Source: Escherichia coli (GTDB lineage: Bacteria; Pseudomonadota; Gammaproteobacteria; Enterobacterales; Enterobacteriaceae). From it: 64,000 nt of DNA. The DNA lies in assembly GCF_045037415.1 (NCBI RefSeq), contig NZ_CP173438.1; one strand, 5' to 3'. The number at the start of each line of letters is the position of its first letter. Within the stretch, counting starts at the first letter, position 1. Below, one piece after another: positions 9,703 to 46,086 of the stretch. Under the pieces are notes generated by a model. It saw only the letters and a list, made by a program, of their open reading frames with translations, was not told where the DNA came from and did not search any database. The translations under genes were made by a program, and so were the position numbers.

Positions 9703-9735
9703 TAATCCGAACACTGTCTGTTGTTCACTTTTTCA

Positions 9736-9773
9736 GGCGTCAGGCCCCCTTTCTGTTGATGAAGCCTGACGCC
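9736..9773. terminator. 10-bp inverted repeat (ggcgtcaggc ... gcctgacgcc) between convergent rclC and an aldo-keto reductase gene
   Basis: Stem read directly; flanking T/A runs are weak. Confidence 0.3.
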
Positions 9774-9861
9774 ATATTACCGGAGATATGACAGAGTGAC
9801 GATCAATATCACTCCCCTGTTAAAAAATTTTTGTCGTCTCAGGTAAAATAAGTGATTAATA

Positions 9862-41189: not shown

Positions 41190-42820
41190 AACTGGAATTT
41201 AGAGACAAAACCAAAGCCCTGATCGACAGCCTGAAAAGCATCTGTGCGAACTACGGCCTGGGCAACGACGGTAACGAATTCAAAATTATCACTCAGGCAT
41301 TCCTGTACAAATTCCTGAACGACAAATTCGCTTTTGAGGCCAAACAGAAAGATAAAAGTATCGCCAGCGCCGAAAGCTGGGAAGATGCGCTCAGCGCAAT
41401 GAGCGAAGATCAACTGAAAAAGCTGCAACAGCGGATGGCCCCGGATACCGCCCGCCTGAAGCCGCACCATTTTATTCGTTACTTGTATAACCGACAAAAC
41501 GCAGCGGACTTTGCCAGAACTTTTGACGACACCCTGATGGACATCGCCGCCACCAACAACGACGTCTTCGCGGTCAAAACCGACGGCGGCGCGAAAGTGG
41601 TGCTGTTTGAGCGCCTCAGCCAGTACATCGCCGACGAATCAAAGCGCGATGATTTCTGCCGCGCCATCATCAACAAGCTGGCCGATTTCAGCTTCGAACG
41701 CATCTTCACGCAGAAATTCGACTTCTACGCCACCATCTTTGAATACCTGATCAAAGACTACAACAGCAACTCCGGCGGCAAATACGCGGAATACTACACG
41801 CCCCACGCCGTGGCGCGCATCATGGCGGAAATCCTGGTGCCGAAAGCGCAGCAGGGCGTGGTGCGCAACGTAAGCTGTTACGACCCGTCCGCCGGTTCCG
41901 GCACGCTGCTGATGAACGTGGCGCACGCCATTGGGGAAGATCGTTGCAGCATCTTTGCCCAGGATATCTCGCAGAAATCCTCCAGCCTGCTGCGTCTGAA
42001 CCTGATCCTCAACAACCTGGTGCATTCGATCCCTAACGTTATCCAGGGCAACACTATTCTGCATCCGTTCCACAAGGACGGCGGCGCGCTGAAACGCTTT
42101 GACTACATCGTCTCCAACCCGCCGTTTAAGATGGATTTCAGCGACTTTCGTGACGCGCTGGACAGCAAGGAAAACCAGCAACGTTTCTTTGCCGGGATAC
42201 CGAAAATCAAAGCCAAAGCCAGGGACAAAATGGAGATTTACCAGTTGTTCCTGCAACACATCATTTTCTCGCTGAAACCGGGTGGCAAGGCGGCGGTCGT
42301 CGTGCCGACCGGGTTTATCACCGCGCAATCGGGCATTGATAAAGGCATTCGCGAACATCTGGTGCAAAACAAGATGCTGGCGGGCGTGGTTTCCATGCCG
42401 TCGAATATCTTCGCCACCACCGGTACCAACGTGTCGATCCTGTTTATTGACGCCAGCAACAAAGAGAAAGTGGTGCTGATCGACGCCTCGAATTTAGGTG
42501 AAAAGGTCAAAGACGGCAAAAACCAGAAAACGGTGCTGACGGAGTGCGAAGAAAAACGGATCTGCGAAGCGTTTAACAACAAGTGGAGCGAAGAGGATTT
42601 CTCGGTGGTGGTCAGCTATGACGACATCGCCGCGAAAAATTACTCGTTCAGCGCCGGACAGTATTTTGATGTGAAAATCGAATACACCGACATGACGCCG
42701 GAACAGTTTGCCGCGAAGATGAAAGGATTTACGGAGAATCTGAATAATCTCTTTGAACAGTCGCGCGAGTTAGAAGTGCAAATAAAAATGCAGATGGCAG
42801 ATATCAAATATGAAATTTAA
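41183..42820 (+). CDS. hsdM: Type I R-M N6-adenine DNA methyltransferase HsdM
   Basis: AdoMet motif (DPSAGSGTLL) and catalytic NPPF (IVSNPPFKMDF); overlaps the hsdR stop. Confidence 0.8.
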   Translation: MVELEFRDKTKALIDSLKSICANYGLGNDGNEFKIITQAFLYKFLNDKFAFEAKQKDKSIASAESWEDALSAMSEDQLKKLQQRMAPDTARLKPHHFIRYLYNRQNAADFARTFDDTLMDIAATNNDVFAVKTDGGAKVVLFERLSQYIADESKRDDFCRAIINKLADFSFERIFTQKFDFYATIFEYLIKDYNSNSGGKYAEYYTPHAVARIMAEILVPKAQQGVVRNVSCYDPSAGSGTLLMNVAHAIGEDRCSIFAQDISQKSSSLLRLNLILNNLVHSIPNVIQGNTILHPFHKDGGALKRFDYIVSNPPFKMDFSDFRDALDSKENQQRFFAGIPKIKAKARDKMEIYQLFLQHIIFSLKPGGKAAVVVPTGFITAQSGIDKGIREHLVQNKMLAGVVSMPSNIFATTGTNVSILFIDASNKEKVVLIDASNLGEKVKDGKNQKTVLTECEEKRICEAFNNKWSEEDFSVVVSYDDIAAKNYSFSAGQYFDVKIEYTDMTPEQFAAKMKGFTENLNNLFEQSRELEVQIKMQMADIKYEI

Positions 42821-43101
42821 TTATCTGAAAATTAAAGATGTATGTGATTTTGTCGGAGGAAGTCAACCTCCAAAATCTCAATTTATTTATGTATCTAAAC
42901 CTGGATATGTCAGGTTGATCCAGACGCGTGATTACAAAACGGATGCATTTCCCACGTATATACCAATATCGTCGACGAAGAAATTTTGTGATGAATTCGA
43001 TATTATGATTGGTAGGTATGGTCCCCCAATTTTTCAAATATGTCGCGGATTGAAAGGAGCATATAACGTTGCCTTGCTGAAGGTTAGGTAATGACTCCAA
43101 C

Positions 43102-43605
43102 TTATTGATAGTGTTTTATGTTCAGATAATGCCCGATGACTTTGTCATGCAGCTCCACCGATTTTGAGAACGACAGCGACTTCCGTCCCAGCCGTGCCAG
43201 GTGCTGCCTCAGATTCAGGTTATGCCGCTCAATTCGCTGCGTATATCGCTTGCTGATTACGTGCAGCTTTCCCTTCAGGCGGGATTCATACAGCGGCCAG
43301 CCATCCGTCATCCATATCACCACGTCAAAGGGTGACAGCAGGCTCATAAGACGCCCCAGCGTCGCCATCGTGCGTTCACCGAATACGTGCGCAACAACCG
43401 TCTTCCGGAGCCTGTCATACGCGTAAAACAGCCAGCGCTGGCGCGATTTAGCCCCGACATAGCCCCACTGTTCGTCCATTTCCGCGCAGACGATGACGTC
43501 ACTGCCCGGCTGTATGCGCGAGGTTACCGACTGCGGCCTGAGTTTTTTAAGTGACGTAAAATCGTGTTGAGGCCAACGCCCATAATGCGGGCTGTTGCCC
43601 GGCAT
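43102..43605 (-). CDS. insB: IS1 InsB reading frame (expressed as an InsAB fusion by -1 frameshifting)
   Basis: Canonical IS1 insB sequence including [17 protein letters not shown]. Confidence 0.85.
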
Positions 43606-43799
43606 CCAACGCCATTCATGGCCATATCAATGATTTTCTGGTGCGTACCGGGTTGAGAAGCGGTGTAAGTGAACTGCAGTTGCCATGTTTTACGGCAGTG
43701 AGAGCAGAGATAGCGCTGATGTCCGGCGGTGCTTTTGCCGTTACGCACCACCCCGTCAGTAGCTGAACAGGAGGGACAGCTGATAGAAACAGAAGCCAC
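43524..43799 (-). CDS. insA: IS1 InsA (91 aa)
   Basis: [24 protein letters not shown]... Confidence 0.9.
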
Positions 43800-44975
43800 T
43801 GGAGCACCTCAAAAACACCATCATACACTAAATCAGTAAGTTGGCAGCATCACCGAAGGTTATACCTAAAGAAGGTGTAAGTCGTGATTTTTTATACTAT
43901 TTTTTGAAGCAAGACTCTGTTTTCCAATATGTTGATAAATTATCTGCCAGAACCGGAGGACAAACTGGAGTTGATCTAGTTTCTTTAAAAGAATATCCAG
44001 TCAGGATACCTGAAGAAATTGAATGTCAAGAAAAATTGGTGACTATTCTTAGTGTTATTGATAAAAAAATCGCCCTCAACAACCGCATCAACACGGAACT
44101 GGAAGCGATGGCGAAAACACTGTATGACTACTGGTTTGTACAGTTTGATTTCCCTGATGCCAACGGAAAACCGTATAAAACCTCCGGCGGGAAGATGGAG
44201 TATAACGCCACGCTGAAACGGGAAATTCCGGCAGGTTGGAATGACTCCATTCTTGGTAAGTTTATTGAGTTAGATCGTGGCGTTACTTATAGCAAAGAGG
44301 ATGTTCGAACTCAGGATGATAAAGATACGATAGGCATTCTTCGCGCTACAAATGTGACGGGAAATAATGTTGATATTGATGATTTAGTCTTCATTCCTTC
44401 TAGTAGAGTAAACGTTAATCAAATGCTAAATAAATTTGACATATTGATCGTGATGTCAAGTGGTAGTAAGGAGCATGTAGGGAAGAATGGCGTGTATTAT
44501 TTCGAAAAAAAAACATGCATTTGGCGCATTTTGTTCAAAAATTACACCCGTCAGAAAATACAGATATTTTATAAATACATTCCTGCAATCGAAATGGTTT
44601 AAGTCTTATATAAACAATCAGTGCTTGGGAACTAATATTAATAACCTGACCAATACGCATATCACTAATTGTGAAATCATATGCCCCACTCCTGATGTTG
44701 TGGCGTTATTCGAGAATAAAATGATGCCAATTTATAATAAACTGGCATCAAACACTCAAGAGAATAGTCATTTAATCCAACTCCGCGACTGGCTCCTCCC
44801 TCTACTTATGAACGGACAGGTCACGGTCAAATAATCCCCGGCGTGGTTTTGCGAGGCGCATTCCAGATCCGCATTGCGCCGCACTCACCGCAGCAAAACC
44901 GCTTGCCGTTCATAACCGATCGCAGTATCTTTCTCCCGCGCCTGCAAAATCAGGCGTCGGGATTAGCCTCCTGAA

Positions 44976-45167
44976 AACCGTTACAGGCGACACTTGACGC
45001 ACCAGCGTCTTTTTTGTGTCGTGCGTTCGGCTACACCTCAATGGCGGGCCGGGCGGGGGCGTCGCAAGACGCGCCGGTTTCCTGTAACGCCGGTAAGGCT
45101 AACCCCGTCCGGTTCCGCCCCCATGAGATTAGCCTCTCTAGTGGCGGACATAATAAACCGTTACAGG
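44976..45167 (+). repeat. Three copies of the motif CGTTACAGG (direct at 44978-44987 and 45158-45167, inverted at 45081-45089), with a second repeated block gattagcctc at 44961 and 45127; upstream of the orphan ORF
   Basis: Read directly from the sequence. Confidence 0.5.
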
Positions 45168-45176
45168 AGACGCCCT

Positions 45177-45647
45177 ATGGCTACAATCCTCATCTCTGAC
45201 TGCGATTTACTCGATCTATTGTCCGCTCCCTTCAATGCCACCACGGATTTCACCGTCCTGGCCGACTACTGCGCCCGCTTCGCCGAAACCCTGATAGAAA
45301 CCGACGATCCGGCGCTGCGGCTGGCGCTCTGCGGACGGCTTCACGCGGCTCTTGCGCTATTGCAACCCACGCTGCACGACCCCATCCCGCCGCATCTGAT
45401 TGAAAGCCTGACCGTTGATACCCTTCCCGCCACACCAGAGCACTTTATTTCCGAACCAGATTCCTTGTGCGAATACTGCCTCGCGCTGCTCCAGCTACTG
45501 CTGGAACGTCCAGCAGAGCCAAAAACGGAACAAACCCTGACCGGGCTTCTGTGTGAGCTGGTCTGGAATTTCACGGAAGGACTCAAATCCCCGCGCTGGC
45601 TGCGTACCGCCGACGGCGTAAAATTTATCAGTGAGGTGGCCGCATGA
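45177..45647 (+). CDS. Hypothetical protein, 156 aa, no recognised domain
   Basis: ATG 45177 preceded by SD aggag; the longer 217-aa ORF is a GC-rich upstream extension with no SD; Leu/Ala-rich acidic protein. Confidence 0.4.
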
Positions 45648-45792
45648 TGCAACAGGACTGACATTCCGCCGACATTATTGCGGTGCTGAAAAAGCGGGGA
45701 ACGCCTCTGGCGGCACAGAGAAAAACTCATTGCGGAAGCGCTGTAAATATCGCCAGAAATCATCTGGTCCTCAAGGTACTTTGATAGCAAAG

Positions 45793-45879
45793 GCAAGCTG
45801 GCTGGTTCAGTCCGGAGTCTCTCTTCTTGCACTTAAAGAGATGGGAGGATGGGAAACTCTTGAAATGGTTCGTCGTTAG
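45793..45879 (+). pseudogene. Remnant of a tyrosine-integrase 3' end (...[28 protein letters not shown]), copy B, next to intact thrW
   Basis: Integrase C-terminal signature truncated by TAG at the conserved Tyr codon position. Confidence 0.45.
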
Positions 45880-46010
45880 GCTCACCTTTCAGCCAGGCAT
45901 TTCACCGGGCACGCGAGCAAAATCGATGCGATTATAAGTCGCAATGGCACAAATACGGCACAAGAGGAGAACGTGGTGTATTTAAATATGGGGTAACTAC
46001 TTGATTTTAA

Positions 46011-46086
46011 TGGTGCCGATAATAGGAGTCGAACCTACGACCTTCGCATTACGAATGCGCTGCTCTACCAACTGAGCTATATCGGC
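46011..46086 (-). tRNA. thrW: tRNA-Thr (anticodon CGU), 76 nt including CCA
   Basis: Reverse complement reads GCCGATATAGCTCAGTTGGTAGAGCAGCGCATTCGTAATGCGAAGGTCGTAGGTTCGACTCCTATTATCGGCACCA; cloverleaf arms and CGT anticodon identifiable. Confidence 0.9.

Follow-up and report, generated by a model that had tools for sequence, protein, structure and literature searches.

Immunity switches built from small antisense RNAs are known from phage P4 and from the plasmid prophages P1 and P7. In P4 the promoter PLE is followed by the leader segment seqA, the CI RNA with its seqB, the segment seqC and the kil/eta genes, and the mechanism of CI/seqA and kil/eta has been worked out to the point of experimentally demonstrated RNA-RNA pairing (PMC10111431, PMC4825925). 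In the immI region of P1 and P7 (c4, icd, ant), for which the c4 mechanism has likewise been described (PMC12197685), the paired elements a1/b1 lie upstream, a2/b2 lie over the ribosome-binding site of the first cistron, and a second cistron is translationally coupled to the first. A related arrangement is found in Salmonella Gifsy-1, in the order isrK-orf45 (STnc1160)-anrP, where the leader RNA IsrK activates orf45-anrP by translational coupling (PMC4825925), and IsrK and C4 have been equated with seqA and CI, respectively (PMC3632133; also PMC4825925). Here we describe a locus from Escherichia coli that can be compared directly with these systems. It lies in a stretch of 64,000 nucleotides (nt) of contig NZ_CP173438.1, referred to below as the window, around the tRNA gene thrW, with proA, proB and phoE beyond it. 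The segment 44903-45176 is very probably a P4/P1-type antisense-RNA immunity region within a decayed thrW island, and the first gene that it would control is an open reading frame (ORF) of 156 amino acids (aa), called ORF156. This assignment is carried by direct observations, namely the matches to RNA families, the RNA fold, co-varying pairing sites and their geometry, the conservation of the protein, the gene order and the geometry of coupling.

An earlier note on this DNA had pointed to the ORF beside thrW, to its good Shine-Dalgarno sequence, to a short motif ahead of it that is present twice in direct and once in inverted orientation, and to a second, duplicated block, and had read the pattern as operator or recombinase-binding sites. 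The description proved accurate, apart from offsets of 1 nt for two copies. The motif CGTTACAGG has only these three matches in the 64-kb window, compared with 0.32 expected, and three matches were reached in 1 of 100 shuffles. The second block, GATTAGCCTC, occurs at 44961-44970 and 45127-45136, a count that is not unusual by itself; because AGGCTAA, its complement, is also present between the two, the second block is a three-copy set as well. The ORF occupies its full span including the stop codon, and the Shine-Dalgarno sequence AGGAG (45165-45169) lies 7 nt ahead of its ATG. The proposed function of the motifs did not survive the comparison. The region is regulatory, as had been supposed, in that it matches an antisense-RNA module of the IsrK/C4 type, and the motif copies are the pairing sites of this module: a1 and b1 in the leader, a' and b' in the antisense RNA, and a2 and b2 just ahead of ORF156. 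In the window a' and b' are exactly complementary to the copies on either side.

The P4 immunity region gives the same three Rfam matches as the window, in the same order, and the alignment of the two is colinear through the -35 box, the leader hairpins, the terminator, the CI RNA, both sets of targets and the start ATGGCTAC. The leader RNA of the window is of the IsrK and seqA type, with a 5' hairpin, a second hairpin and a terminator. As in P4, the downstream target extends over the ribosome-binding site of the gene that comes first. The locus shares with P1 and P7 the Rfam C4 family and the placement of a1/b1, a2/b2 and a coupled second cistron, and with Gifsy-1 an IsrK leader that has its own terminator, a C4-like RNA and a coupled, gated regulator.

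That the arrangement lies beyond chance follows mainly from its conservation, with co-variation, in related loci. We collected 80 loci of Enterobacterales that encode ORF156 relatives, one genome per species, and aligned 79 of the upstream regions. The promoter boxes, leader hairpins, terminator, C4 RNA and the start ATGGCTAC are conserved in this alignment, with the CTTG of the -35 box and the TA...T of the -10 box at 90% or more. The letters of the motifs vary among the loci, and they do so in at least 12 a-types (including GTTACAGG, CTTACTGG, CTTGTTGG, CATACTGG and CTCATCGG) and six b-types (TTAGCCT, TTGGAAC, TTGGTCT, TTGACCT, TTAGCAT and TTGGCAT), which appear in mixed combinations. The motif copies are kept in relatives, and in about 66 of the 79 loci the three copies of each motif change in concert. 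The sites a1/b1 and a'/b' are paired in 97.3% of cells, with 218 cells changed on both sides, and a'/b' and a2/b2 are paired in 96.3%, with 221 such cells. For both interactions the observed value was reached in none of 500 shuffles, and sliding the partner by 1-3 columns lowers the pairing to 25-46%. Changes on a single side are mostly G-U wobbles, as exemplified by 10 U-G cells at one pair. The C4 fold itself, a closing stem that encloses two hairpins, is paired in 97.2% of cells, and 19 of its 26 pairs have changed on both sides; again, none of 500 shuffles reaches this value, and the slid controls fall to 34-46%. An alternative hairpin, in which the 3' strand of the C4 closing stem pairs downstream instead and presents b2 in its loop, is paired in 91.1% of cells with 37 double-sided cells (slid controls, 24-69%), which is weaker support than that for the C4 structure.

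The geometry at the start of ORF156 is in keeping with translational control. The a' and a2 sites form a 13-nt inverted repeat that is 92% complementary, and the predicted 13-nt duplex spans the whole Shine-Dalgarno sequence. Its predicted energy is -17.4 kcal/mol, compared with -13.6 kcal/mol for a1. Energies calculated for whole-RNA duplexes between C4 and its targets are not distinct from those with shuffled targets; since the sequences are GC-rich, these values are uninformative, and the site-level duplexes alone carry information. The coordinates of all features are collected in Table 1.

Table 1. Features of the ORF156 locus and its surroundings, in window positions
Feature	Position	Strand	Basis or remark
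Promoter, equivalent of P4 PLE (predicted)	-35 TTGCCG 44903-44908, 17-nt spacer, -10 TATCTT 44926-44931	+	Conservation and colinearity with P4
IsrK/P4 seqA-type leader RNA	44938-45015	+	Rfam isrK (RF01394), 68.0 bits against a gathering score of 50
b1, GATTAGCCT	44961-44969, extended pairing 44958-44969	+	Displayed by the second hairpin of the leader
a1, CGTTACAGG	44979-44987	+	Single-stranded in the leader
Intrinsic terminator of the leader (stem and T-run)	44996-45015	+	
C4/P4 CI-type antisense RNA	45037-45125	+	Rfam C4 (RF01695), 71.8 bits against a gathering score of 45, model positions 1-87 of 87
Small ORF, RefSeq "ash family protein"	45041-45199	+	Runs through the C4 RNA in a frame different from ORF156; Pfam Phage_ASH, E=1.3e-7
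a', CCTGTAACG (inverted copy)	45081-45089, extended 45077-45089	+	Loop of the second C4 hairpin (Rfam structure)
b', AGGCTAA	45096-45102, extended to 45107	+	Single-stranded stretch before the C4 closing stem
Alternative hairpin	45115-45147	+	3' strand of the C4 closing stem, 45115-45121, pairs with 45141-45147 instead; b2 in the loop
b2, GATTAGCCTC	45127-45136	+	Downstream target of C4
a2, core CGTTACAGG	core 45159-45167, site 45159-45171	+	Downstream target of C4
ORF156, conserved protein, RefSeq WP_000201175.1	45177-45647	+	First cistron past the antisense target; P4 has kil at this place
Ner-like (HTH_35) repressor pseudogene	45644-45797	+	ATG overlaps the ORF156 stop (ATGA)
Lambdoid int 3' relic with attachment site	45793-46010	+	Outside the P4-type module; RefSeq integrase pseudogene
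tRNA-Thr(CGT), thrW, integration site	46011-46086	minus	ARAGORN; Rfam tRNA, 71.8 bits

By analogy with the known systems, the following course of events can be proposed. A constitutive promoter, with a transcription start that we infer at about 44938, would transcribe the IsrK/seqA-like leader with its decoys b1 and a1, and most transcripts would end at the leader terminator to give a short RNA that carries a1/b1. Transcripts that read through would yield the C4/CI-like RNA, which would be excised by processing, and its exposed a' and b' would pair with a2 and b2 on further transcripts. The a'-a2 duplex over the ribosome-binding site would block translation of ORF156 and, along with it, that of the ATGA-coupled Ner-like gene, and premature transcription termination would ensue, as in P1 and P4. 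The block may be lifted by the short leader RNA, the a1/b1 of which would compete for C4 as IsrK does in Gifsy-1, or by stronger upstream transcription. ORF156 would be the gated first product of the early operon of the island.

Natural variants among the 79 loci show what happens to the gene when the antisense RNA is absent or replaced. C4 is missing, with ORF156 intact, in seven of them (L011, L039, L044, L061, L065, L070 and L077). The alignment suggests that some of these variants arose by joining b1 to b2 (L011) or a1 to a2, and all would be constitutively de-repressed versions of the module. In two other loci (L008 and L021), the Rfam family sRNA-Xcc1 (RF02221) takes the place of C4 before the ORF156 homologue, with a match of 69.5 bits against a gathering score of 53 at 7841-7925 of L008. 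This RNA carries a direct-inverted-direct motif of its own, CTCAAAA. It is built on a different scaffold, and sRNA-Xcc1 is not present in the window. Judged by this layout, sRNA-Xcc1 would be a second, unrelated antisense scaffold that gates the same protein family in these two loci.

The gated gene had been described as an orphan and as possibly a decayed phage gene, and neither description holds for the ORF. There are 608 clusters of ORF156 homologues, in Escherichia, Salmonella, Klebsiella, Enterobacter, Citrobacter, Dickeya, Pectobacterium, Brenneria and others, and the full scan gave 228 representatives at 50% identity. The median pairwise ratio of nonsynonymous to synonymous substitution rates (dN/dS) is 0.25 over 1895 pairs, 99.8% of which are below 0.5, which is indicative of purifying selection. 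Across 20 genera-level relatives, 31 columns are invariant, and more than 500 E. coli genomes carry an intact copy with an identity of 99% or more; the decay is that of the operon and the surrounding island. With homologues and purifying selection on record and the motif copies kept in relatives, neither of the outcomes that the note had named as refuting was seen. A model made with AlphaFold2 (AF2) shows a four-helix bundle with a C-terminal beta-hairpin (predicted local distance difference test score 84, predicted template-modelling score (pTM) 0.77). By its conservation, ORF156 is a real and uncharacterised protein.

The observation that the ORF has no recognisable domain stands. The family search gave no match in Pfam (with the protein and 25 divergent members), NCBIfam, PHROGs or PDB sequence profiles, and PADLOC gave none at E<=0.1 for ORF156, two distant homologues, the Ner protein or the Integrase_1 protein encoded downstream in relatives. 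A tblastn search of 50,697 phage records with ORF156 returned one unannotated 1.5-kb fragment only, and neither P4 nor P1; no homology to P1 Icd was seen in these records. Two candidates from P4 were tried and rejected: ORF151, for which the hhalign probability is 0.1%, and kil/eta, for which the comparison with the kil frame gives 6.6% over the first 19 residues only. ORF156 and P4 kil occupy the same slot and have the first residues MAT..T in common, and nothing further. Our best guess, offered with low confidence, is that ORF156 is no toxin but a non-enzymatic regulator that binds a partner, comparable to an anti-repressor or a switch factor.

The co-variation of the three motif copies, taken alone, is also compatible with a DNA-binding repressor or recombinase that has co-evolved with its sites and controls either ORF156 or the recombination at thrW. 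On double-stranded DNA an inverted copy counts as the same site, and a Ner-like DNA-binding gene belongs to the operon. We nevertheless give this explanation hardly any credence, because the inverted copies lie in unpaired parts of a strongly co-varying RNA that matches curated families, because the one-sided changes are transitions compatible with wobble pairing, and because the a and b variants assort independently, also in loci that have no Ner gene. In addition, the module is homologous to seqA, CI and seqC of P4, for which RNA-RNA pairing has been shown by experiment (PMC10111431, PMC4825925). A further explanation accepts the pairing and takes C4 and ORF156 as an addiction pair similar to toxin-antitoxin systems, with ORF156 inhibiting growth in the manner of P4 Kil or P1 Icd, which would explain why both survive in decayed islands. 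The slot of ORF156, straight after seqC/a2b2, is that of Kil and Icd (PMC10111431); the RNA has persisted together with ORF156 here and in several loci from which the integrase has been lost; the second, unrelated antisense RNA in two loci suggests that tight control matters; and IsrK-like RNAs of P4-like prophages were required in S. Typhi when assayed by transposon-directed insertion-site sequencing (PMC3632133). Set against this, the seven variants that lost C4 and kept an intact ORF156 argue against a potent toxin. The sequence of ORF156 has nothing in common with Kil or Icd after the first ~10-19 residues, the protein is modelled as a soluble helical bundle rather than a small toxic peptide, and PADLOC gives no match, so we regard an addiction pair as unlikely. 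A type I toxin-antitoxin system, which needs a hydrophobic toxin of less than 60 aa, was rejected on the size and predicted solubility of the 156-aa bundle and on its being kept intact without C4.

It is also very unlikely that ORF156 is a non-functional phage gene or a leader ORF of which the translation alone matters. The dN/dS values, the invariant columns, the confident fold and the near identity among E. coli genomes given above all speak against this, as does the occurrence of ORF156 alone, with no coupled gene downstream, in ~35 loci. What plausibility this explanation has comes from the state of the operon here, with a Ner pseudogene and a foreign integrase relic, and from orf45 of Gifsy-1, which acts mainly via translational coupling and has an amino-acid sequence that is not conserved (PMC4825925, PMC12197685).

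Several points also weigh against the P4/P1-type immunity region or against parts of it. The promoter, the processing of the RNA, the block and its relief, and the part played by ORF156 are inferred. At 44925-44977 the match to the Rfam family c4-a1b1 (RF03163) scores 43.8 bits and stays below the gathering score of 46.7; the shortfall says little, since P4 itself, with 44.1 bits, does not quite reach it. In ~35 of the 80 loci no gene is coupled to ORF156. Fold searches with ORF156 returned generic helical bundles or uncharacterised members of the family only, and AF2 gave no confident complex (pTM 0.49) when ORF156 and Ner were fused through a (G4S)5 linker and modelled from a paired alignment of 19 rows. 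Finally, one distant homologue has no C4 nearby and another has C4 downstream of the gene; because of these, the link to the RNA switch is limited to the Enterobacterales subfamily and does not extend to the whole family.

The immunity-region assignment leaves clear differences from the known systems. The 156-aa helical protein gated here is unrelated to Kil/Eta, epsilon and ORF151 of P4, the module lacks alpA/vis upstream and primase downstream, and the operon in relatives runs on into Ner-like repressor and recombinase genes. P4 has ~90 extra nt between terminator and CI, and the motif letters, and hence the immunity specificity, are not those of P4. In contrast to P1 and P7, the downstream genes are not icd and ant, and the locus is the relic of a chromosomal island rather than a plasmid prophage. 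As in P1 and P7, where specificity is set by few loop bases (PMC12197685), there are many specificity variants among the relatives here. The output of Gifsy-1 is a Rha-like anti-repressor that switches on AntQ, unlike ORF156 and the Ner-like repressor.

The small ash ORF that runs through the C4 RNA is also unlike its Gifsy-1 counterpart, in that neither the length nor the frame of such an ORF is kept among ORF156 loci. Its equivalents in 68 relatives are anywhere from 3 to 199 aa long and fall evenly into the three frames relative to ORF156 (29/20/19); here the ash ORF is probably not a conserved coding gene. P4 eta and Gifsy-1 orf45 are translated through the corresponding region (PMC10111431, PMC4825925), and a leader role like that of orf45 (PMC4825925) is conceivable.

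Downstream of ORF156, the stop codon overlaps the start of a Ner-like HTH_35 gene as ATGA in ~42 of the 80 loci. Where the gene is intact, its product is recognised by Pfam HTH_35 and by PHROG 769, "transcriptional repressor". The typical order past Ner is a toxin-antitoxin pair or a small helix-turn-helix gene, the Integrase_1 protein, a convergent P4-type integrase, and tRNA-Asn or tRNA-Phe. The Integrase_1/Phage_int_SAM_2 backbone protein has 294 aa, and in L088 an EFASI RNA (Rfam RF02957, 99 bits) is found at 9733-9861, directly upstream of its gene. In the window, tblastn with an intact homologue shows that in the Ner pseudogene TGA replaces Trp6, that an internal deletion or frameshift has occurred, and that there is a further stop codon. 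The int relic that follows has 91% identity to attP and the 3' end of int in the thrW-integrating phages HK542, mEp213, mEp043 and SfX, and gave no match to the P4-type island integrase. Because this integrase fragment is lambdoid, thrW must have served two or more kinds of element, the remains of which were joined by a deletion. Judged by its gene content, the P4-type module here is a relic, in which the RNA genes and ORF156 are intact, Ner is dead and its own recombinases are lost.

Hundreds of E. coli genomes carry an identical locus, and from 44840 on the window is 100% identical to the island of strain 4/1-1 (NZ_CP023844). The annotation of that island contains ORF156, the ash ORF, hsdRMS, AbiE and recombinase pseudogenes only, and the genes of a functional P4-like satellite (P4-type integrase, alpA/vis, the alpha primase, and the capsid-size and late-control genes sid, delta and psu) do not appear in it. 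Nothing upstream of the promoter is conserved in the compared islands, and variable cargo is found there instead: type I restriction-modification in the window, a large reverse transcriptase with AbiE in strain JCH767, a UvrD-helicase and ATP-dependent nuclease pair in strain NRG 857C, and Rhs elements elsewhere. From its annotation, we take the NRG 857C pair to be Gabija-like. The homology between islands with different cargo starts exactly at the leader -35 box (44902), and likewise in L002 and L003; by this criterion, the position just upstream of the promoter (44835-44902) behaves as an exchange point for defence-gene cargo. Within the cargo of the window, the type I restriction specificity gene hsdS (42810-44834) is interrupted at ~43087-43854 by the insertion sequence IS1, which is absent from 4/1-1. 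Between 43855 and 44839, the two strains differ by a single 1-nt indel that probably lies within the A9 run (44506-44514) and would explain two overlapping ORFs in different frames. A full-length Rfam IS009 match (32980-33180, minus strand, 193.6 bits against a gathering score of 117) is unrelated to the module.

More distant ORF156 homologues head an operon that runs on to a DUF927 primase gene. The elements that carry them also encode AlpA and a P4-type integrase, and by these genes they are P4-like satellites. In distant P4-like elements (L095, 4267-5142, and the protein P0233), gene callers fuse an ORF156-like domain with the translated C4 region into long proteins; in P0233 two C4-like stretches flank the ORF156-like part, which suggests tandem immunity modules.

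Taken as a whole, the regulatory module is already known in kind, and the protein that it gates is uncharacterised. The motif array needs no new biology, since it is a textbook antisense immunity switch, and a false lead to protein operators is removed. We consider it possible, and put it forward tentatively, that in the tRNA-integrated islands of Enterobacterales P4-type RNA immunity has the ORF156 family as its gated output, and that the family is a new kind of switch factor, the control of which has been important enough for two unrelated antisense scaffolds, C4 and one like sRNA-Xcc1, to be recruited in front of it. Such a factor could rouse a helper prophage by acting as an anti-repressor, or could activate excision of the island together with the Ner-like repressor and the Integrase_1 protein. 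The switch stands at the integrase-proximal end of many tRNA-associated islands, with defence cargo (restriction-modification, defence-associated reverse transcriptases, AbiE, helicase and ATP-dependent nuclease pairs, Rhs) directly upstream of its promoter, and it may decide when such islands become active. The many a and b specificity variants are a natural set of immunity types, and the gated protein, which is widespread and under purifying selection, provides a defined target for the study of how P4-type islands are activated.

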